DNA of 32,000 nucleotides from Candidatus Paracaedimonas acanthamoebae (GTDB lineage: Bacteria > Pseudomonadota > Alphaproteobacteria > Caedimonadales > Caedimonadaceae): the NCBI GenBank assembly GCA_000743035.1, contig CP008936.1:1-32000 (forward strand), in the 5' to 3' direction. This document shows, in pieces, positions 6,540 to 31,345 of this stretch (the stretch's first letter is position 1; every line of letters begins with the position of its first letter). Below the pieces are notes generated by a model. It was not told the DNA's origin and did not search any database. It was given only the letters and a program-made list of their open reading frames with translations. A program made the translations under genes and the position numbers.

Positions 6540-6833
6540 ATGAAAAATTTTAATCTTTTTTATTTTGTTTTTCTTCTGCTGGGGGGATGTAGCTGTGATC
6601 ATGACGGCTGCAGAATTGATGGGACTTTTTTTCAAGGAGAAGGCAGGGAAGAAGAAAATGACTTAAAACCATGGGAAAAACCTTGCGAAACGGTGAGTGG
6701 CGTAAAAAAAGAAGAAGTTCGCTTTAAGCATAATTTTCTAACTTTAGATACTCAGACACTCTCAAGCAAAGAGATTATCTTGAAGAAAAAAAGAGAAGAA
6801 GAAAAAAAATCTATTTCTTCGAACACGCCTTAA
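6540..6833 (+). CDS. Small hypothetical lipoprotein (97 aa)
   Basis: The N-terminal signal has a lipobox-like LLGGC. The rest is Lys/Glu-rich with no recognisable domain. It lies directly upstream of the exported GH3 gene. Confidence 0.45.
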   Translation: MKNFNLFYFVFLLLGGCSCDHDGCRIDGTFFQGEGREEENDLKPWEKPCETVSGVKKEEVRFKHNFLTLDTQTLSSKEIILKKKREEEKKSISSNTP

Positions 6834-11598: not shown

Positions 11599-11826
11599 AT
11601 GAAATTTAATCTTATTTCAGTATTGGTAATGTCTTTTGCTCTAAGCTTAGCAGCATGTGAGAAAAAAGCAGAAGAAAAATCACAAGAGGAAGCGGCAAAA
11701 ACTGAAGAAACTCAAGCTCCTGCAGCACCTGCTGAACAAACACCTGCAACTCCAGAAGCTCCAGCAGAACAACCTCCTGCAGCACCTGAGGCTCCAGCTG
11801 AGACGAAGACAGAAGAGACAAAGTAA
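11599..11826 (+). CDS. Small lipoprotein with a Pro/Ala/Glu-rich repeat tail (75 aa)
   Basis: AAGGAG ribosome-binding site about 10 nt upstream. Signal peptide with a canonical lipobox (LSLAAC). The mature part is low-complexity (APAAPAEQTPATPEAPAEQPPAAPEAPAE). An intrinsic terminator follows. Confidence 0.6.
   Translation: MKFNLISVLVMSFALSLAACEKKAEEKSQEEAAKTEETQAPAAPAEQTPATPEAPAEQPPAAPEAPAETKTEETK
11716..11802 (+). repeat. Imperfect in-frame tandem repeat encoding the (A/T)PxAPAEQ-type motif
   Basis: Recurring units (gctcctgcagcacctgctgaacaa, ccagaagctccagcagaacaa, cctcctgcagcacctgaggctccagctgag) lie inside the lipoprotein gene. They explain the long stop-free ORFs in the two other frames. 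Confidence 0.55.
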
Positions 11827-14188: not shown

Positions 14189-16288
14189 ATGAGTCCCTTA
14201 GGAAGAAAAGCGAAGCAGATGAAAACTTTATTGCAGTCTTCAGAAAGCCGCGTTCAACCTTATGTTCCTGCAGAAAAAAATCTTCCTGAAATTACATGGA
14301 AAGCTACCCTGTTAAGCATTTTTTTAGCGGTTATTATGGCAGGTTCAAATGCTTACTTAGGACTAAAGATAGGTTTAACAGTTTCTGCGACTATCCCGGC
14401 TGCGGTCATTTCAATGACAGTCCTTCGTTTTTTTCGGAATTCTAATATCTTAGAAAATAATATTGTGCAGACAGCAACATCTGCAGGTGAAGTTATTGCC
14501 GCTGCGGTTGTTTTTACTCTCCCTGCTCTTCTTTTGATGGGCTATTGGAAAGAATTTCCATTTGGAATTACGACAGCCATTATTATTGTGGGAGGATTGT
14601 TAGGTGTATTATTTTCAATCCCTTTGCGTCGCGCTTATATTGTCGAAAATGAGGAGCTTAAATTTCCGGAAGGGATTGCAACTGGAGAAGTATTAAAAGT
14701 CGGAGATAGCGAAGCTCGTGAAGGAACAAGAGATTTGTTGATGGGGGGACTGTTTGCTGGTTTAGTTAAATTTGCCCAATCTGGTTTAATGATCATGAGC
14801 GAAAGCGCTCATTATTGGTTTCAAACAACACGCACTGTTTTTGGATTTGGATCAGGATTTTCTTTAGTTCTTGTGGGTGCAGGCTATATCGTGGGCGTTC
14901 AAGTGGGTGTAAGTATGTTGATTGGTGCTATTGTTGCATGGATGATAGCTGTTCCTCTTCATGGTTTTCTTTTTGGTCTTCCTGAGGCGGGAAGTGCTTA
15001 TGAAATTGCCGTTACTATTTGGAATAAGAATATTAGAATGATTGGTGTTGGAACAATGGTTGTGGGAGGTGTTTGGACTTTAGTTTATCTTATAAAGCCT
15101 ATTGCCGAAGCAATTCGATCATCGCTTGCAACATTAAAAAAGGCAAAATTGGGAACACAAGGTTCTTTATTAAGAACAGAATATGATATTCCTATAAACT
15201 ATGTTTTAATAGGTGTTGCTGTATTAACAATTCCATTGGCATTTATTTTTCATTACATTTTAAGTCAAGCAGATATGCAAATCCCTATGACAGTTCATTT
15301 CGTAACTGTCCTTGTGGTTACGCTATTTGCAATTATTGCTGGCTTTTTATGTGCGGCCATTGCTGGTTATATGACAGGGTTAGTAGGTTCTTCTAATAAT
15401 CCTCTTTCGGGCGTTACTATCATGGCAATTCTTTTCATTTCCATGATTTTGCTTGTTATGTTAGGGACGCATATTGATTTTGGAACAAAGGGGGCTAATT
15501 CATTAGCAGCGGCAGCTATTGCGATTATCATTGGGGCAGTTATGGCTACAGCTGCTGCAATTAGTGGAGATAATTTGCAAGATCTTAAGTCAGGCCAAAT
15601 TGTCGGTGCAACTCCTTGGAAACAACAAGTTATGTTAATGCTTGGTGTTGTGGCTGGTTCACTTGTTATGGCCCCTATCCTCGAAGTTTTATACCAAGCT
15701 TATGGAATTGGCGATAGTTTACCACGTGAAGGAATGGACCCGACGCAAGCATTAGGCGCTCCTAAAGCAGCAATCATGGCGGCTATTGCGGAAGGAGTAT
15801 TCACGCACTCATTAGATTGGACAATGTTTAGCATTGGTGCGGCACTTGCAATAATTTTTATCCTTGTTGATAATTTCTTAAAAGGAAGTAACTCTACGTG
15901 GCGTTTGCCGGTTCTAGCTGTTGCCTTAGGAATTTATATGCCTTTAGATGTTACTATCCCATTACTTGTAGGGGGAATTATTGCCTTTTTGTGTCAATTT
16001 AAAATGAAAAAAGAGCAATCAAAGTTTAGTGAAAAAGATTATACTCATAAGCAAGAATATGCTAACCGCAGAGGAATGCTTTTCTGTTCAGGTTTAATTG
16101 CTGGAGAGTCTATCATTGGTATTTTATTGGCTATTCCTTTTGCGGCCTATCAAAGCACCGATGTGTTTAAAATGGCTCCTGCTGATTTTGAACATATGGG
16201 GGTACTTCTGGGGATTTTAGCTTTTATGGGGGTATGTTATTACCTTTATAAAATCGCTTCCCAGTTCCAAGAAAGTGCCAAAAAATGA
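14189..16288 (+). CDS. OPT-family oligopeptide transporter
   Basis: 699 aa and highly polytopic, with more than 14 hydrophobic segments. The N-terminus is typical of bacterial OPT proteins (PEITWKATLLSIFLAVIMAGSNAYLGLKIGLTVSATIPAAV). An AAAGGAG ribosome-binding site precedes the ATG. Confidence 0.88.
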   Translation: MSPLGRKAKQMKTLLQSSESRVQPYVPAEKNLPEITWKATLLSIFLAVIMAGSNAYLGLKIGLTVSATIPAAVISMTVLRFFRNSNILENNIVQTATSAGEVIAAAVVFTLPALLLMGYWKEFPFGITTAIIIVGGLLGVLFSIPLRRAYIVENEELKFPEGIATGEVLKVGDSEAREGTRDLLMGGLFAGLVKFAQSGLMIMSESAHYWFQTTRTVFGFGSGFSLVLVGAGYIVGVQVGVSMLIGAIVAWMIAVPLHGFLFGLPEAGSAYEIAVTIWNKNIRMIGVGTMVVGGVWTLVYLIKPIAEAIRSSLATLKKAKLGTQGSLLRTEYDIPINYVLIGVAVLTIPLAFIFHYILSQADMQIPMTVHFVTVLVVTLFAIIAGFLCAAIAGYMTGLVGSSNNPLSGVTIMAILFISMILLVMLGTHIDFGTKGANSLAAAAIAIIIGAVMATAAAISGDNLQDLKSGQIVGATPWKQQVMLMLGVVAGSLVMAPILEVLYQAYGIGDSLPREGMDPTQALGAPKAAIMAAIAEGVFTHSLDWTMFSIGAALAIIFILVDNFLKGSNSTWRLPVLAVALGIYMPLDVTIPLLVGGIIAFLCQFKMKKEQSKFSEKDYTHKQEYANRRGMLFCSGLIAGESIIGILLAIPFAAYQSTDVFKMAPADFEHMGVLLGILAFMGVCYYLYKIASQFQESAKK

Positions 16289-16369: not shown

Positions 16370-16446
16370 GCGCCCGTAGCTCAGCTGGATAGAGCGTTGC
16401 CCTCCGGAGGCAAAGGTCAGGGGTTCGAATCCCTTCGGGCGCGCCA
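16370..16446 (+). tRNA. tRNA-Arg (anticodon CCG)
   Basis: Hand-folded cloverleaf. The acceptor stem is GCGCCCG/CGGGCGC and the D arm is GCTC-AGCTGGATA-GAGC. The anticodon stem TTGCC/GGCAA carries loop CT-CCG-GA. The T arm is AGGGG-TTCGAAT-CCCTT, with discriminator G and an encoded CCA. Confidence 0.95.
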
Positions 16447-16537: not shown

Positions 16538-17893
16538 ATGACATCAATAAACGCTAATAACGTACTGAATCTAAAACAACTTAAAGAAGATATACATTCT
16601 AAAAAAGCAAAAATTGGTATCATTGGGTTAGGGTATGTGGGACTTCCTTTAGCCCATGCCTTTGTAAATAACTCCTTTTCAGTACTAGGGTTTGATATTG
16701 ATGAATCGAAAGTTAATAAATTAAAAAATTCTCAATCTTATATTAAATATATACCAGCAAGCCAAATAGCTGAGATGAACAATACCGGGCGATTTCAGGC
16801 GACAGTAGATCATGCACAATTAAGAGAAGTGGACATTATCATTATTTGTGTACCAACGCCGCTTACAAAGCATCGCGAACCTGATATGAGTTATGTCGTA
16901 AGCACAACTGAAGCCATTAAGCCTCATTTGAAAAGTGGACATCTTGTTATATTGGAGTCCACAACTTATCCAGGTACAACAGAAGAAGTTTTAAAGACTA
17001 TTTTAGAAAAATCTGGCCTTATTTGTGGGCAAGATTTCTTTTTAGGATATTCGCCTGAGCGAGAAGACCCAGGAAATATTAATTATAAGATTAATACAAT
17101 TCCCAAAGTTGTTGGAGGGGATGATCCTGATACTTTAGAAATGTGCGTTGCACTTTATGGAGCTATTGCAGCTGGAGTTGTGCCTGTTGCCTCTATTAAA
17201 ACAGCTGAAGCAGTAAAGTTAACAGAAAATATTTTTCGCAGTGTTAATATAGCACTTGTTAATGAGTTAAAGATTGTTTTTGAGAAGATGGGAATCGATG
17301 TTTGGGAGGTTATTGAAGCTGCAAAAAGTAAACCTTTCGGTTATATGCCTTTTTATCCTGGGCCGGGATTAGGAGGACACTGTATTCCTATAGATCCCTT
17401 TTACTTGACGTGGAAAGCGCACGAGTATGGAATTTCAACGCGATTTATTGAACTTGCCGGACAAATTAATACAAGTATGCCATTAAGAATAGTGCAACGA
17501 CTTGCCGAAGCCCTAGATGAACGGTTTTCCCGCGGATTAAGAGGGGCAAAACTTTTGATTTTGGGAATAGCGTATAAGAAAAATGTTGATGATATGCGTG
17601 AAAGCCCTGCTCTTGAAATTATGGAAATTTTAAGAGAACGAGGTGCAGAAGTATTTTATTATGATCCTTTTATTCCTGAAATTGAAAAAACAAGAGAACA
17701 CATGGAACTTGCTGGCATGAAGAGCATTGGGTGCACCGCAGAAGAACTTAAAAAAATTGATGCAGTCATTATTTGCGCAGATCATGACAGTGTTGATTAT
17801 AATTTTATAGTTGAGAATAGTTCTCTTGTTATTGATACGCGCAATGCGACAAAAGCAGTTAACCATCATAGAGAGCGCATTTTTAAGGCTTAA
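16538..17893 (+). CDS. wbpA: Nucleotide-sugar 6-dehydrogenase, likely UDP-N-acetyl-D-glucosamine 6-dehydrogenase (WbpA-like)
   Basis: N-terminal Rossmann motif [14 protein letters not shown] and the catalytic-Cys region [13 protein letters not shown]. The context with WbpB/D/E-like genes supports the call. The ORF track starts at TTG 16529; ATG 16538 is preferred but uncertain. Confidence 0.88.
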
Positions 17894-23618: not shown

Positions 23619-23734
23619 AATTGAGAATCTATATAATCTCCTATCTACTGTATTTTAAAAATATACTTTTCTTATTAGTCATAAAAATATATGGTAATTT
23701 TTAAATATTTTTGGATTTTAAGGTGCGGGTTTTT

Positions 23735-26700
23735 ATGTCTAAAAGAAAAAATACAAAAAATGAGAAAATTAGCAAAGTTTTCACCGCAGGGCTTCTGCTG
23801 GCGGTTCTTTATTCTAAGCCGTCTTTTTCTATTATAGACTCTATAAGATCTTTAGAAACTTCAAGCGAAAATTATACCTTTTTGGCACAAACTTTATCGT
23901 CAGATACTTTTACATCTTTAATTAAAATTTTGTCACATTTTTTTCCTTCATTCCATGGCATCCTTGAAGAATTATTACCTAAGCATATTAAGAAGAATCA
24001 GCAGCCTTTAAATTTTATTGGCGTAGGAAAGAAATCTTTAACATCTTTATCTTCATCTAGAGGAAAATATAGAAATCTTCAAACTTCAGCGCAGGCTCTC
24101 ATACCTGTCTTAAGAGTTTCAAGCCCATCAATTTTAGAGAAATCCGGCTTTATGCATTCTTCATTTAAGCTAAATTCTGAAATGGAGAATAAGGGGGGAC
24201 AGCAAGGTGGAAAATCTTTCCATATATCAGGGGATCTTTATTCTTTAGAGGAGAAAACGTTTCTCTCATCTTTGTATAAACGACAACATATAGGTCTTGT
24301 TTCCGAAGTTTTTCGGGAAGTCAAAATTAACCTTGCTGCACAAAATCAAGAAGAGATGAGGCATCTGATGCCCTCGTATTCTCATGTAAATTTTTTTACG
24401 AAAACTCAAATCCCATCTATTCACTTGGATGAAGGGGTAGATGAAATTCACCAAGAAATAATTAAATCCTTTGAAAGTGAAGAATCTAAGAAAGTAGAAA
24501 ATTTAAATATCAATGATGTCTCTCAAGTTCCACTAAGAGGAATAAGCGAAGAAGGTGTTGAAGAACCTAAGAATGTATTATCAGCGTCGGATTTTTTGAG
24601 TGTTTTGTCTGAGACGAATAAACCTCTACTTACACCACTTAAGACATATACCCCTAAAAAACCGGTTTCTAAGCATGTTCGATCTAAGCCGACTATTCTG
24701 GATACTTTAGCCACAGAAGACACATTTGAGTCATTATCTGATCAGGATGGGACTATTCCACAAATTGCTTCAATCCCACCAAAATTGCCTCAATCTCAAT
24801 TCAGAAGCGATAAATTACCACAAAACCATAAAGAAGCGATAACAGCGGCCCTGCAAAAGAACAAGATAAACTTATCTGAAAAATCGACAGTCATTGTCGC
24901 ACTCCAAAGAATTGTTAAAGATTCAAAATTAAAAATAATAGAGATTCCTGAATTAATTGAAAAATTATCCCAAGGCATCGATGAACTTATTAAAAAAACA
25001 TATAAAATCGCCCCTGAAAAGTTTAAAAATCTTATATTACAACTAATCCAACCTCGTTATCATATTGTAACAGATGTCGATTTTAATCAAAGATTTGAAG
25101 AACTTTCTCAAGCTGTTTTTGAATTATGGCGTGCGAAGTTGTTAACAGATTATATTGAAAAGGGAAGCGAAGAAGTTCTAGAAAAGCCTCTTCCGACTTC
25201 CAGTGATATGAGTCCTTTTGTAAATAAAGTTATCGACGATCGCTTTAATCATGAAGTTGATTCTAAACTTGGTCCGCAAATGAAGCAAAATGCAAGGATT
25301 ACAATTGATGCTACTGTTAAAAACGGCTCACTTTATAGTAGTGAAAGCCAATTCTCCACAGAAGACAAGAGAGCAATCTTATCTCAGGTTTTTAAGCTGC
25401 TTGTTTTAGATCCCTCATTTAAGCTCCCTACTTTAGTAAATTCGCGGAATAATCAGGATATTGATCAAGATAAATTGAGAGAAATGATCAAACCATATAT
25501 TACTCTTGCTGTTGAGCAACTTTATGGTTTAGAGCGTGTTAAATCTTTAAATGTAGAGGCTGAGCCAGAAAACAATTCAATGCCTTTGAAAGCAAGCATA
25601 CCTGCAAAAAAAATACTTTCTGTTGAAGAAATAATCAAAAAAGCAGAACCTTGGTTAATTACTAGATTATTTGAGCTTTTACCAGGAAACACCAAAGAAG
25701 AAAAAATTGATTTTTTAATTAATATAACTTCTCAAGATGAGATCCTTACAAAAATTAGAACTGAAATAGTAAGTTGCTCTGAAGAAGACAAGCTTATACA
25801 GTTGAAAAGGCGAGAAGAAGAGGTAAGTAAAAGGACTTATGGAAGGATAATGGAAACTATTATGGAAGAACTGGGTTCTCAAGATTTTACCGGTTCTCCG
25901 CTTAAATTAGCGATTGCTTTTTATAGAGATGCAAAGCTTCTTATCGAAGATTATTTAAATACAAGTTCTGGATTCGTTGCAGCAATTGAACAAACGTTAA
26001 AACAACCTCTTAAAGAAACACAGACATCTTCTGAAATATATACATTAGTAAAAAATATTATGTATAAGGGAAAATATAAAATTCAAACGCGTATTGATGG
26101 TAAACGATACGTAGAAACTCCGCCTTTAGAAGCTCCAAAATTTGTCTTCTTATTTTCTCTTCCGTATTGGTTAGTATTAAAAGAGCGTTTGATAAAGAGA
26201 GAAGAGCGCAATAAGCAGTTAATAGAACAAGCTCAACTTAAGAGAAAAGTGCTTTCAGAAAAGCTTAATGAATTCTTTTTTGGGGGAAAAATCTTTGATC
26301 TTACTCAGCGATTAGAGGATGTATTTCAAGGAGAAGAAAAATCTTTCTCAAAAGGACAAGTGCAAGATTCTATTTCTATTCCCTTAAAAATAGACGTCTC
26401 TAGTTCAATAATTGGAGCTCCTCCACCTCCCCCACCACCATCTATTTCTTCTGCTCATCAAGAATTAAAGTCTATCAATAATGCCATTGTCGAGATTAGG
26501 AAAGGGATCCAAAAATCTTTAAAAAGTTCAGGGTTAGCTGTTAAAGAAACAAGCTTAATTTTGGAACTTCTCCTTCGCTATAAGTTGCAAAATGAGCATA
26601 TGCAGACTTCTGATATTGTGAATAAATTTTATGAGAAATTTATCGCTATTTTTTATAGAACATTAAATATTGATAATAAGGAGAACGCTCATAAAAAGTT

Positions 26701-27883
26701 TGCGTCTCAATTAGGGATAAAAAATTCGGGGCAACTAGTTCGTAAGTTAACACAAAGTCTTGATGAAGAACTACAGAGCTATTTTTTGGCATCCTTGACG
26801 GTAGAAAATATGGATTCAATTTCAGCTTTTGGCGTTCAAACTCAAGATTCATTAAAAAAATTTAATGCTAAAGCTACTGAAATAACGACAACATTTTTGA
26901 AAACCCATTTTCAAGCGGCATTAAAACAATTTAAGATTGAACCAGAGTCTTCAGGAAAAAATTTGGAGACTTTAGAAGTTTTCCTTAAGGAAGAGTTGTC
27001 AAAACTGCATCTTAAGTATACTGGTGAAGAAAAGCTTGAATTGGTGCTTGGGACATTTGTTCATATGTTAAATACAATTGACCAAAATCCAAGCTTTGTT
27101 CTTCCCATAAAAGTATCTGAAAAAGATAATAGCCAATTCATCTTAAATATTGAAGCATTTAAACCTGCTTTTGTGGGATTTTTAAATGAAGTTATCACTA
27201 AAAAATTTAAGGGAAATCGCCCGCATATTAAGATTCCAGAATATAATGAAGACATAAAAATTGAACCTTCTAAGGTCCTTCCTTATTTAGGAAAGCTTTT
27301 CTTGGAAAAAGCATTCGACATTTTACCTGGAGAGAATCAAGAATTAAAAATAAATAATTTAATTAAGGCCGACTCAAAACAACTTAGTTCTTTAATAGAT
27401 GATACTTTAAATTTATTATGTTTAACGAGCTATCATTATAAAACATCTGCAAGCACAGAGGCTACGATTGTTTTTACCGAACATACGCTTAAAATATTTA
27501 AGGAGGTAATCACAGAACGTTATATAGCGCTTTCTGCGTCTTTAGATAGCAGTTGCCGAAATATCATAAAAAGTAGCAAAGATCCTTTAAGTTTATTTTC
27601 TAGTCTTTTGACAACACAGTTAGGAATAAATGGTAGTACTCCTAAAAAACATAGAATCAGTATGTCAAGCCCTCATGATAGAAAGAAGAAAATTGAAACT
27701 GAAGAGACAATAAACGCTTTTGATATTCTTCTGTCTTTACCGAGCTTATGGCAACGCAAAAATAAACTTGAAATTAAAAAGAAATTTGAAGCAGAAGAGC
27801 AGGAGAGAAAAGAGCGTGAAATGACACATCGTATACAGTTTCTTCGGCAATTTATTAGCTCCGAGATAGAAATACTCAGCTAA
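23735..27883 (+). CDS. Giant hypothetical protein (1382 aa): signal-like N-terminus, duplicated ~490-aa module, polyproline plus WH2/beta-thymosin-like motif
   Basis: An uninterrupted 4.1-kb ORF in roughly 34% GC DNA is very unlikely by chance. ATG 23735 has an AAGGTG ribosome-binding site about 9 nt upstream; the track start at TTG 23711 is less likely. The N-terminus is MSKRKNTKNEK followed by the hydrophobic VFTAGLLLAVLY. I recognise no known catalytic or family motif. Confidence 0.8.
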   Translation: MSKRKNTKNEKISKVFTAGLLLAVLYSKPSFSIIDSIRSLETSSENYTFLAQTLSSDTFTSLIKILSHFFPSFHGILEELLPKHIKKNQQPLNFIGVGKKSLTSLSSSRGKYRNLQTSAQALIPVLRVSSPSILEKSGFMHSSFKLNSEMENKGGQQGGKSFHISGDLYSLEEKTFLSSLYKRQHIGLVSEVFREVKINLAAQNQEEMRHLMPSYSHVNFFTKTQIPSIHLDEGVDEIHQEIIKSFESEESKKVENLNINDVSQVPLRGISEEGVEEPKNVLSASDFLSVLSETNKPLLTPLKTYTPKKPVSKHVRSKPTILDTLATEDTFESLSDQDGTIPQIASIPPKLPQSQFRSDKLPQNHKEAITAALQKNKINLSEKSTVIVALQRIVKDSKLKIIEIPELIEKLSQGIDELIKKTYKIAPEKFKNLILQLIQPRYHIVTDVDFNQRFEELSQAVFELWRAKLLTDYIEKGSEEVLEKPLPTSSDMSPFVNKVIDDRFNHEVDSKLGPQMKQNARITIDATVKNGSLYSSESQFSTEDKRAILSQVFKLLVLDPSFKLPTLVNSRNNQDIDQDKLREMIKPYITLAVEQLYGLERVKSLNVEAEPENNSMPLKASIPAKKILSVEEIIKKAEPWLITRLFELLPGNTKEEKIDFLINITSQDEILTKIRTEIVSCSEEDKLIQLKRREEEVSKRTYGRIMETIMEELGSQDFTGSPLKLAIAFYRDAKLLIEDYLNTSSGFVAAIEQTLKQPLKETQTSSEIYTLVKNIMYKGKYKIQTRIDGKRYVETPPLEAPKFVFLFSLPYWLVLKERLIKREERNKQLIEQAQLKRKVLSEKLNEFFFGGKIFDLTQRLEDVFQGEEKSFSKGQVQDSISIPLKIDVSSSIIGAPPPPPPPSISSAHQELKSINNAIVEIRKGIQKSLKSSGLAVKETSLILELLLRYKLQNEHMQTSDIVNKFYEKFIAIFYRTLNIDNKENAHKKFASQLGIKNSGQLVRKLTQSLDEELQSYFLASLTVENMDSISAFGVQTQDSLKKFNAKATEITTTFLKTHFQAALKQFKIEPESSGKNLETLEVFLKEELSKLHLKYTGEEKLELVLGTFVHMLNTIDQNPSFVLPIKVSEKDNSQFILNIEAFKPAFVGFLNEVITKKFKGNRPHIKIPEYNEDIKIEPSKVLPYLGKLFLEKAFDILPGENQELKINNLIKADSKQLSSLIDDTLNLLCLTSYHYKTSASTEATIVFTEHTLKIFKEVITERYIALSASLDSSCRNIIKSSKDPLSLFSSLLTTQLGINGSTPKKHRISMSSPHDRKKKIETEETINAFDILLSLPSLWQRKNKLEIKKKFEAEEQERKEREMTHRIQFLRQFISSEIEILS
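24773..26280 (+). repeat. Internal module A of the giant ORF (diverged protein-level duplication)
   Basis: Colinear anchors are shared with module B: DPSFKLP/NPSFVLP, LFELLPGNTKEEKIDFLI/AFDILPGENQELKINNLI and LFSLPYW/LLSLPSLW. Each module ends in a Lys/Glu/Arg-rich helix. Spacings between anchors are comparable. Confidence 0.55.
26417..27880 (+). repeat. Internal module B of the giant ORF (diverged protein-level duplication)
   Basis: Same anchors as module A, in the same order. The module begins with the polyproline tract and the WH2-like motif. Confidence 0.55.
26420..26530 (+). other. Polyproline tract (7 Pro) followed by a WH2/beta-thymosin-like motif
   Basis: The translation reads APPPPPPPSISSAHQELKSINNAIVEIRKGIQKSLKSS. 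IRKGIQ...LKSS resembles N-WASP/WASP WH2 (LLDQIRQGIQLKSV / IRQGIQLNKT). The spacing from I to LK matches thymosin-beta4 (IEKFDKSKLKKT). Confidence 0.45.
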
Positions 27884-29536: not shown

Positions 29537-31345
29537 TTACTTGTTTGATGATGCTAAAAGCATATGAGCAATAGAGAGCTCAATCAAATACATGCATTTG
29601 TCCTTATTAATTTGATTAAGATAATTTTTAGCTGCCGTACGCATCTTGTTGATATCTTGATTTGCTAAAATTAGCTCTTTATAAAAATTTTTTCCTTTTT
29701 TACTTTCAAATGATTTCTGAAGTCTTTCAGCAAAGTTAGTTTTCTTATACAGATGTTTAGCCATTGCATCTAAGGGATTCCACCCCTTTTGAACAGCTTC
29801 GATAAAAGGAGTGATCTTTTTCATGGCTTCTTGAGTGAGATATTTGAAAGTGACTCTATCTCCCCGACTAGAGACTAGTTCTTTACCATATATCCAGAAA
29901 TCAACCCCAACTCTCACAGGACATAAAATCCCTTTATAAAGCACAAGCCAATCGGGCATTTGGGGAGAACCAATAATTGTAAAATGGAAATCATTTTCAG
30001 TATAATTAGCGCCAATTGTCCAGTAATAATAACAATCATCAAGTAAGCAATAAGAATTTAAGATAATATTCTTGCTGTTTTTTTTCTTTTTTCCAAAATG
30101 TATACTACTGTAGTTTCCGCGCCAAGGTTGGGGTAGCTCTAAGAGAGGAAAATAAAGAAAAAACTGATTATTTTGACTTGTGTACTCTTTATAAGATTTC
30201 TCAGCCCCTAAAGCAGTGTAACCTTGAATCCAGGTATTAGGGGTATTCAATAAAGGAGAAATCGATGGAGAAGTTGTTGTATGTTTTTGATTACTTGAAG
30301 GTAATTGACTTATTTCAGTTTTTAACTTTCCTACAAAATTTTGAATAATTGTAGCTTGAGAAGGATTAATTTTTACAATTCTACCTTTAAATGTATCGCT
30401 TACATACATTAAGCCTTCTGGGGTATATTCAATCCCATAAGGCATATTAAATAAATCTATTCCAAGCCCATTACCACCTATACTTTTTTGAGGTTCTAAA
30501 TCATGAGATAGAATTGTAATCTTTCCTGTATGAGCATCAGTGATCGCAACCTTATCTTTATAAATACTAATAGAAGTTGGCCATAAGTAGCCATTTTTTC
30601 TCCATTCTATTTTTCCCGTTTCTTTTAAAAGCTTACCTTGAAGATTGAACATAAAAATTTTTCTTTCTTGAAGGCTTGTAACATAGATTGATTTTTCATT
30701 TTTAGAAAAAGAGACACCATGCGCATTTTTAATAGGGAGAGACCACGCCTTTTTACCTCTATCAAAAAGTACAAGTTTGCTCGCATCATAATCAGCAATC
30801 GCACAGATCTTTCCATCTAGCGTTACATCAATATTTTCTGGCCCAAGTAAATCGATGTCTTCATAACGGTCTTTAAGAATTAAGTTAAAAAATTTATCAA
30901 ATTCTAATAGTAAAATATCTTTACCTGTATAATTTGCCACATATAAGGTTTTAGTTGTCTTATTGTATTTGATGCCCGTAGGATTCCAGACTTTGATTTT
31001 TTTAGGAGGTAAAAGTATTCTTGCCTTACCATTTTCTATATTTAATAAAAAAATATTCTGATAATTACAAAATACCAAATGCTTTTCATCAATTTGTGTT
31101 AAAGAGCAAATTACGCTTGGGTCTATCATTTTTCCTTGCTCATCAACCATTGGAATTGATTCTAAATGAGGTGAAATATTTAAGTTTTGGGGGTCGAACT
31201 TTTTATCTTCGAAATAGCAATAAGTATAAGAAATAAAGGTTGCTAGAAAAGCTAGTAAACTTACCTTAAGTAGATTTTTATTTTTTAATAATTTTATTAT
31301 TAAATGTAGTTTGCTTAAAATTGACTGCTTAATTAGAAGTATCAT
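29537..31345 (-). CDS. Membrane-anchored NHL-like beta-propeller protein with an uncharacterised C-terminal domain (602 aa)
   Basis: N-terminal hydrophobic anchor (VSLLAFLATFISYTYCYF). Five to six blade-like repeats follow the P/G-x-G-[IV]...[LI]YV[AST][DN/S]...G-K-I pattern: NPTGIKY..LYVANYTGKDILLL, GPENIDV..CAIADYDASKLVLF, AHGVSF..IYVTSLQERKIFMF, WPTSIS..VAITDAHTGKITIL and MPYGIEY..MYVSDTFKGRIVKI. I see no recognisable motifs in the last ~270 aa. Confidence 0.72.
   Translation of the reverse strand: MILLIKQSILSKLHLIIKLLKNKNLLKVSLLAFLATFISYTYCYFEDKKFDPQNLNISPHLESIPMVDEQGKMIDPSVICSLTQIDEKHLVFCNYQNIFLLNIENGKARILLPPKKIKVWNPTGIKYNKTTKTLYVANYTGKDILLLEFDKFFNLILKDRYEDIDLLGPENIDVTLDGKICAIADYDASKLVLFDRGKKAWSLPIKNAHGVSFSKNEKSIYVTSLQERKIFMFNLQGKLLKETGKIEWRKNGYLWPTSISIYKDKVAITDAHTGKITILSHDLEPQKSIGGNGLGIDLFNMPYGIEYTPEGLMYVSDTFKGRIVKINPSQATIIQNFVGKLKTEISQLPSSNQKHTTTSPSISPLLNTPNTWIQGYTALGAEKSYKEYTSQNNQFFLYFPLLELPQPWRGNYSSIHFGKKKKNSKNIILNSYCLLDDCYYYWTIGANYTENDFHFTIIGSPQMPDWLVLYKGILCPVRVGVDFWIYGKELVSSRGDRVTFKYLTQEAMKKITPFIEAVQKGWNPLDAMAKHLYKKTNFAERLQKSFESKKGKNFYKELILANQDINKMRTAAKNYLNQINKDKCMYLIELSIAHMLLASSNK

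Follow-up and report, generated by a model that had tools for sequence, protein, structure and literature searches.

The first 32,000 nucleotides of contig CP008936.1 of Candidatus Paracaedimonas acanthamoebae (this whole stretch is called the window below) contained a gene for a large protein of 1382 amino acids (aa), IM40_00100, in which seven consecutive prolines lay between two helical modules. We found that this polyproline tract was a selectively maintained XPPPPP motif that stood alone in an otherwise unconserved linker modelled with low confidence. The original prediction had combined the tract with a downstream WH2/beta-thymosin-like motif and proposed a candidate effector aimed at host actin. 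The second motif turned out to be a seven-residue coincidence (EIRKGIQ) inside the predicted structural helix alpha1 of module 2, and it was absent from the orthologues. The elements concerned were located as follows.

23735..27883, forward strand: gene for the 1382-aa orphan protein IM40_00100 (identity match, orthologue starts).
26420..26440, forward strand: polyproline tract, P896-P902 in GAPPPPPPP, an XPPPPP motif of the ABM-2/FH1 type (alignment, motif definition).
26339..26452, forward strand: inter-module linker, aa 869-906, poorly conserved and of low model confidence (identity, AlphaFold2 (AF2)); a peptide of the polyproline linker reads IIGAPPPPPPPSISS.
24827..26338, forward strand: helical module 1, aa ~365-868, with a long terminal helix, a paralogue of module 2 (hhalign, MAFFT, AF2).
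26453..27880, forward strand: helical module 2, aa 907-1382 (alignments; AF2 mean predicted local distance difference test score, pLDDT, of 76.2).
26462..26530, forward strand: the 'WH2-like' string ELKSINNAIVEIRKGIQKSLKSS, aa 910-932, inside the predicted helix alpha1 of module 2.

The tract was encoded at 26420-26440 by the codons CCT CCA CCT CCC CCA CCA CCA, and the earlier reading of seven consecutive prolines was correct. In the five orthologues it took the forms A-P7, S-P13, A-P8, G-P9, and A-P5-LP, and the synonymous codons differed. Since the tract was kept with different synonymous codons, selection acted on the peptide and not on the DNA. The identity of the tract was 0.95, whereas the 15 preceding residues had 0.24 and the 7 subsequent ones had 0.00. 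When module 2 was modelled with AF2, the average pLDDT was 57 in the block of 10 residues with the tract, and it was below 50 for residues 10-21, directly after this block. Both the placement in a flexible linker (low pLDDT) and the conservation of the motif were thus observed. Among the ~10,500 aa of the open frames in the window this was the only run of at least four prolines, and such runs in the related loci were confined to the orthologues of IM40_00100. In the closest orthologue (locus L001, 11642-11680) the 13 consecutive prolines were encoded with a roughly 9-base-pair (bp) periodic CCA CCT CCT pattern, and the variation of the tract length from 5 to 13 could result from in-frame slippage at these repeats.

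The XPPPPP consensus (where X is G, A, L, S, or I) defines the ABM-2 or type-1 proline-rich motif, via which formin FH1 regions, VASP, and WASP/SCAR bind profilin and which is also bound by some SH3 and WW domains (PMC555941, PMC2149354). In agreement with the consensus, the residue before the proline run was A, S, or G in all five orthologues. Since neither basic residues typical of SH3 class I/II ligands nor aromatic residues typical of EVH1 ligands (FPPPP) were conserved in the flanks of the tract, as judged by eye in the orthologues, profilin would be the best fit by motif type. The earlier designation of the tract as a profilin-type polyproline could therefore be retained in the sense of a conserved XPPPPP-type motif (5-13 prolines, identity 0.95). 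Similar to the ABM-2 regions of FH1, VASP, WASP/SCAR, and verprolin, the tract combined a small residue with at least five prolines, was conserved, and was located in a variable linker of low model confidence. In contrast to these regions, it was a single tract rather than an array, it had no adjacent FH2, WH2, or EVH1-related domain, and it belonged to a bacterial protein that is predicted to be exported via Sec and would only putatively be exposed to the host cytoplasm.

IM40_00100 was an orphan with no detectable sequence or fold relative outside a genus-level clade. Searches of Pfam and NCBIfam with the protein, its fragments, and its orthologues returned nothing relevant, and PDB sequences gave no match of relevance. 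When 1.84 billion representatives were searched exhaustively with a HMMER profile, 7 proteins were retrieved, all from the same family and either full-length or fragmentary. The earlier description of a large orphan protein was accurate, and these 7 relatives showed it to be lineage-restricted. According to a scan of the GTDB genomes, only two related 'Caedibacter' metagenome-assembled genomes (MAGs) carried members of the family. The closest orthologue, encoded at L001, was from 'Caedibacter sp. 38-128' and had 61% identity.

The N-terminal part of the protein, up to the start of module 1, comprised four further elements.

23735..23830, forward strand: predicted Sec-type signal peptide, aa 1-32 (by rule, from the sequence and the orthologue alignment).
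23831..24109, forward strand: conserved N-terminal region, aa 33-125 (SHFFPxxHGILEExLPK...), without a family match (alignment).
24110..24787, forward strand: fast-evolving, indel-rich region, aa 126-351, with 30% identity (alignment).
24752..24799, forward strand: proline-rich stretch before module 1, TIPQIASIPPKLPQSQ (alignments).

The N-terminus, arranged as MSKRKNTKNEKISK-VFTAGLLLAVLY-SKPSFS|I, followed by rule the pattern of a Sec signal peptide and is predicted to function as one. Namely, 6 of its first 14 residues were K/R, the hydrophobic core (VFTAGLLLAVLY) was 12 residues long, and positions -3/-1 fell in SFS|I. The predicted signal peptide was kept in the alignment of five orthologues, where the cleavage sites read SFA|V or SIA|V. 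No further hydrophobic segment was present in IM40_00100, as all 19-aa Kyte-Doolittle windows apart from the signal core were at or below 1.6, and by-eye inspection revealed no LD motif, Tat (twin-arginine) signal, or lipobox.

The variable region (aa 126-351) carried a nonsense mutation in one orthologue population. The 'Caedibacter sp. 38-128' orthologue was intact in a MAG contig (1414 aa, L001:8873-13117). In three other assemblies (L003:4959-9203, L004:8001-12245, and L005:8001-10895) codon 316, located in this region, was changed from TTG to TAG, and the orthologue was split into a 315-aa piece with the signal peptide and the N-terminal domain and an open reading frame (ORF) of 1076 aa. 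The L003 and L004 sequences, compared base by base with the L001 locus, were otherwise 99.9% identical to it. The stop at codon 316 could represent a polymorphic pseudogene or a strain difference. A query with the N-terminal 351 aa of IM40_00100 retrieved just the truncated allele of an orthologue.

The two modules on either side of the linker arose by an ancient internal duplication of a helical module of ~480 aa (each copy spanning ~480-500 aa), as supported by hhalign and MAFFT. The hhalign comparison of modules 1 and 2 gave E=0.0015 over 431 collinear columns, and in the column-shuffle test the score was 35.1 vs 16.9 +/- 2.2 with a maximum of 22.1 (n=60; z about 8). MAFFT aligned several landmarks common to the modules (PSFxLP, LLPGxxxExKIxxLI, and ETxxxxxFxxLxSLPxxW followed by a long helix). 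The modules had 16-19% identity, and the internal repeat was not detected by self-BLASTP of IM40_00100. Module 2 was predicted by AF2 to be mostly alpha-helical and to contain two beta-hairpins, its C-terminal helix being 50 residues long, and the C-terminus of the protein was conserved as FIxSEIEILS. Both modules were preceded by a proline-rich element, the one before module 2 being the strict polyproline and the one before module 1 being weak (IPPKLPQ here, PPPPP in the orthologue P0004, and GGPPPLPKMP in L001).

Candidatus Paracaedimonas acanthamoebae, formerly 'Ca. Caedibacter acanthamoebae', is a member of the Caedimonadaceae (Holosporales), and it inhabits the cytoplasm of Acanthamoeba as an obligate intracellular symbiont (PMC11909080), so the intracellular lifestyle that had been guessed beforehand was the right one. 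We tentatively suggest, as a reading that may well prove wrong, that IM40_00100 is an exported host-facing orphan that uses its polyproline linker to dock a proline-recognition module of the host, and whose helical modules have another activity. In this mechanism the protein would be exported via Sec and would then meet the host cytoplasm while displayed on the surface of the bacterium or after release. A polyproline-recognition module of the host would dock at the tract; judged by motif type, profilin would be the best partner, and SH3 or WW domains would be alternatives. An activity as a scaffold or effector would come from the two helical modules. Direct binding of G-actin via WH2 is excluded from the proposed mechanism, and host actin or profilin might possibly be targeted via the polyproline tract alone.

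We counted in favour of a host-facing role the signal peptide that was conserved in five orthologues and was accompanied by no transmembrane segment. Moreover, the combination of an indel-rich variable region with a strain-level nonsense allele seems to us typical of host-facing symbiont proteins. The life in Acanthamoeba cytoplasm, the orphan status of the protein, the conservation of the XPPPPP tract, and the second proline-rich element before module 1 were counted on the same side. The nearest biological precedent in the order would be the 89-kDa periplasmic invasion-tip protein of Holospora obtusa (Iwatani et al. 2005), for which PMC9866348 mentions reported actin-binding motifs and exposure to the host. 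The resemblance would include the same order, periplasmic export, reported actin-binding motifs, and host exposure; in contrast, Holospora is infectious and intranuclear, whereas the symbiont considered here is cytoplasmic. Homology between the two proteins was undetectable because the exhaustive profile search retrieved no Holospora proteins. IM40_00100 would thus be a bacterial protein with a eukaryote-type proline-rich ligand motif on a scaffold that is novel and predicted to be exported. Both profilin and its binding to poly-L-proline were characterised in Acanthamoeba. A conserved eukaryote-type polyproline in a clade-specific, predicted exported protein of a cytoplasmic Acanthamoeba symbiont is therefore a concrete and cheap-to-test, reasonable though unproven lead for a host-interaction factor. 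Very little has been reported on how Holosporales symbionts manipulate their protist hosts, and the review of the group names a candidate type VI route but no effectors (PMC11909080).

A number of observations weighed against such a host-facing role. No feature for crossing the outer membrane was recognised, with both an autotransporter barrel and a lipobox being absent; the C-terminal 50 residues formed a long helix in the AF2 model rather than a type V autotransporter domain, and there was no autotransporter match in Pfam. The strict polyproline tract was single, whereas FH1, VASP, and WASP regions usually carry several, and its flanks had no conserved basic residue of the SH3 type or aromatic residue of the EVH1 type. 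No actin-related domain was found in the Pfam, PDB sequence, and Foldseek searches. The protein can also be dispensable, because a premature stop was present in three assemblies of one orthologue population. Finally, type VI substrates normally lack Sec signals. According to the review, type VI secretion is the likely effector route in the group (PMC11909080).

The main alternative, possible but rather doubtful, is that IM40_00100 stays in the envelope or periplasm as a structural protein after Sec export. In this case the tract would hold the modules apart as a stiff polyproline-II spacer or hinge, with no host ligand. This would be consistent with a Sec signal in the absence of a recognisable feature for outer-membrane translocation, and with the position of the tract exactly at the module boundary and its length of 5-13 prolines, as expected of a spacer. 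In every genome examined the gene adjoined surface-polysaccharide genes and yggT. Moreover, the candidate effector route reviewed for the group is type VI, the substrates of which are normally devoid of Sec signals. However, the proline run was strictly conserved while its flanks varied freely, and to our knowledge the envelope proteins of bacteria very rarely contain uninterrupted stretches of 7-13 prolines. The family was also confined to a small Paracaedimonas-like clade, the one characterised member of which is an intracellular symbiont. The envelope-spanning proteins of the TonB/TolA type, with their rigid proline-rich spacers, are the known systems closest to this alternative. They share an N-terminal export signal or anchor, extended helical parts, and domains that are separated by a segment rich in proline. 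They differ in having X-Pro repeats instead of pure polyproline and show no homology to IM40_00100, which is far larger and restricted to one small clade.

It is unlikely that the tract acts as a translational pause, where ribosome stalling dependent on elongation factor P (EF-P) would allow the co-translational folding of module 1 or tie the expression of the protein to EF-P. It is well established that ribosomes stall at polyproline and that EF-P relieves this, and the tract was located exactly between two independently folding modules. However, about 3 prolines suffice for a pause, which leaves 7-13 prolines and the conserved small residue before them without an explanation. The boundary of module 1 lacked a strict run in most orthologues, and the protein would be exported after or during translation anyway.

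At the ambitious end, IM40_00100 could be imagined as the first representative of a novel group of bacterial host-cytoskeleton factors that evolved independently in Holosporales. In this case the protein would enter the Acanthamoeba cytoplasm after Sec export, the XPPPPP motif and the weaker element before module 1 would recruit profilin-actin, and the modules would form a single-chain, formin-like actin assembler or anchor; we consider this highly speculative and improbable. A related and very improbable version is a single-chain assembler similar to formins or Sca2, in which each proline-rich element with its ~480-aa module would correspond to FH1-FH2 and the tandem modules would mimic an FH2 dimer, similar to the N- and C-terminal repeat domains of Rickettsia Sca2. 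The architecture of a proline-rich element, a helical module, a polyproline, and a paralogous helical module would suit it, as would the Sec signal shared with Sca2. However, the protein had neither an FH2 match in Pfam (PF02181) nor an autotransporter domain. When PDB sequences were searched, the profile of the two modules and a 62-aa segment returned only a tautomerase at E=1.3 and matches driven by the polyproline. The best Foldseek matches against PDB and BFVD had E values of 0.04-0.13 with template modelling (TM) scores of at most 0.1, the module 2 model gave no match at E<0.04, and no formin, Sca2, or other actin-binding fold was found. Since the predicted TM score (pTM) of the model was only 0.42, the evidence from the fold search was weak in both directions, and it argued only weakly against FH2, Sca2, or vinculin-like folds. 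The AF2 model of both modules together (pLDDT 53.7) was too poor for use and its Foldseek search was uninformative.

The bacterial proline-rich actin-assembly factors (Listeria ActA, Rickettsia RickA and Sca2, Burkholderia BimA, Chlamydia TARP, and Vibrio VopL/VopF) were similar to IM40_00100 in that a bacterium living in the host cytoplasm has a protein with proline tracts. An N-terminal Sec signal is a feature of ActA, Sca2, and BimA, and IM40_00100 resembled these three in having a predicted signal of this type. It had no sequence or fold similarity to any of these factors, and it lacked WH2, a membrane anchor, an autotransporter barrel, and the acidic region that activates Arp2/3. IM40_00100 was found to be a member of none of the WH2, thymosin, FH2, and autotransporter families.

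A functional WH2/beta-thymosin motif that binds G-actin next to the polyproline, as in RickA, Sca2, TARP, VopL, and BimA, is extremely improbable, even though some bacterial WH2 mimics escape profile detection. The string ELKSINNAIVEIRKGIQKSLKSS was indeed present at aa 910-932 (26462-26530), but it started 8 residues after the last proline, with 7 residues in between, and not 10 residues later as had been stated. It resembled genuine motifs in the 7-residue EIRKGIQ, close to the IR[QK]GIQ core of N-WASP/WAVE, and in the subsequent L-K at the spacing of thymosin-beta4. In BLASTP, IRKGIQ agreed with N-WASP IRQGIQ at 5/6 positions, and by direct reading the I-to-L spacing of +8 was the same as in thymosin-beta4, both as originally noted. 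EIRKGIQ also matched at 6/6 positions what we take to be the WAVE1 peptide, which Pfam scored as WH2 with 37.1 bits. The alignment with N-WASP was a 7-residue ungapped piece of 15.8 bits, and no alignment with thymosin-beta4 was obtained at E<=100.

The profile searches did not support the motif. Neither PF02205 (WH2) nor PF01290 (beta-thymosin) matched at E<=10, whether the query was the whole protein, one of its fragments (117, 42, and 30 aa), or one of three orthologues. As positive controls we used seven genuine WH2 peptides of the same length, which were accepted by Pfam, and these scored 36-52 bits against the PF02205 gathering score of 23.1 bits. Weak real cases were still reported by the WH2 model, namely CAP1 with 13.2 bits and thymosin-beta4 with 14.1 bits, and the latter scored 82 bits with the Thymosin profile. 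Even an 'idealised' candidate, in which KS was removed and LKSS was changed to LKSV, reached 13.5 bits vs the cut-off of 23.1. A custom WH2 hidden Markov model (HMM), built from the Pfam-accepted peptides and run with the filters off (--max), gave the candidate 0.5 bits over the 7 residues EIRKGIQ only, gave 1.5 bits to an AsnB-like neighbour enzyme, and did not score any orthologue at the equivalent position. On 300 shuffles of the protein its maximum was 3.4 bits, so the candidate was within the range of noise. A relaxed WH2 regular expression that accepts the string matched 0.86 times per shuffled copy of IM40_00100, which is rich in K, L, I, S, and E, with at least one match in 56% of the shuffles, and matched 10 times in 8.5 thousand aa of housekeeping proteins from the window. 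The strict LKK[VTA] expression had no match in IM40_00100.

The IRKGIQ..LK segment was not conserved in the orthologues. The closest of them (L001) lacked five residues of the supposed WH2 helix, G924 was replaced by D in 4/4 orthologues, and LKSS, found in place of the LKK[TV]-type motif, became LKNF, LRSL, LKDS, and LEER. The conservation of the ELKSINNAIVEIRKGIQKSLKSS window was at the 14th percentile among the 23-aa windows of the modules. Moreover, the segment was predicted to be part of a long structural helix in a folded, duplicated module and not a free disordered peptide. In the AF2 model of module 2, which relied on a shallow multiple sequence alignment of 8 sequences, aa 907-931 (26453-26527) formed one continuous helix of 25 residues through the 'LK' with a pLDDT of 75-85. 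A loop of 9 residues (SGLAVKETS) connected this helix alpha1 to helix alpha2. The same helix-loop-helix arrangement in module 1, where QNHKEAITAALQK was followed by the loop NKINLSEKS and the next helix, aligned with it and was modelled at a pLDDT of ~85.

We therefore rejected the WH2 reading, given the absence of a profile match, a score at the level of shuffled sequences, a regular expression matching at chance frequency, poor conservation, and the predicted structural-helix context. The actin-regulator architecture of a polyproline followed by WH2 was unsupported because its WH2/beta-thymosin component was unsupported. This false positive shows that a helical protein rich in K, L, and I can yield WH2-like strings by chance.

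The window represented the region of the chromosomal replication origin since it opened with dnaA, dnaN, recF, and gyrB. The ORF at 23735-27883 on the forward strand, with 1382 aa counted from ATG, was 100% identical to IM40_00100 of Candidatus Paracaedimonas acanthamoebae, which was annotated as 'hypothetical protein'. Its start was likely to be the ATG at 23735 rather than the TTG at 23711 since the orthologues start with MSKRK. In every genome examined, the gene had a surface-polysaccharide cluster on one side and yggT-folD on the other side. A scan for promoters and terminators gave a result at the chance level.

Several other observations were made in the window. A tRNA-Arg(CCG) gene was located at 16370-16446 on the forward strand, between the gene at 14189-16288, which encoded a highly hydrophobic, membrane-protein-like product of 699 aa, and the UDP-sugar dehydrogenase gene, the first one of the polysaccharide cluster. 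A 552-aa ORF started with TTG, encoding an oxidoreductase fused to a hexapeptide acetyltransferase, overlapped the preceding dehydrogenase gene by 83 bases (17811-17893), and its true start was probably further downstream. In the gap between phaC and recG, a 75-aa ORF (11599-11826, forward strand) had a lipoprotein-type signal (LSLAAC) and a tail rich in Pro, Ala, and Glu that included a 33-bp tandem repeat at 11734-11798; this ORF probably encodes a small surface lipoprotein. The low-GC gap downstream of gyrB contained a 97-aa ORF (6540-6833, forward strand) with a lipobox-like N-terminus (FLLLGGC). Finally, a 602-aa protein encoded on the reverse strand at 29537-31345 had an N-terminal hydrophobic segment and was otherwise unannotated, apart from a weak local match to arylesterase over a single stretch of ~30 residues, and it may be another lineage-specific exported protein.

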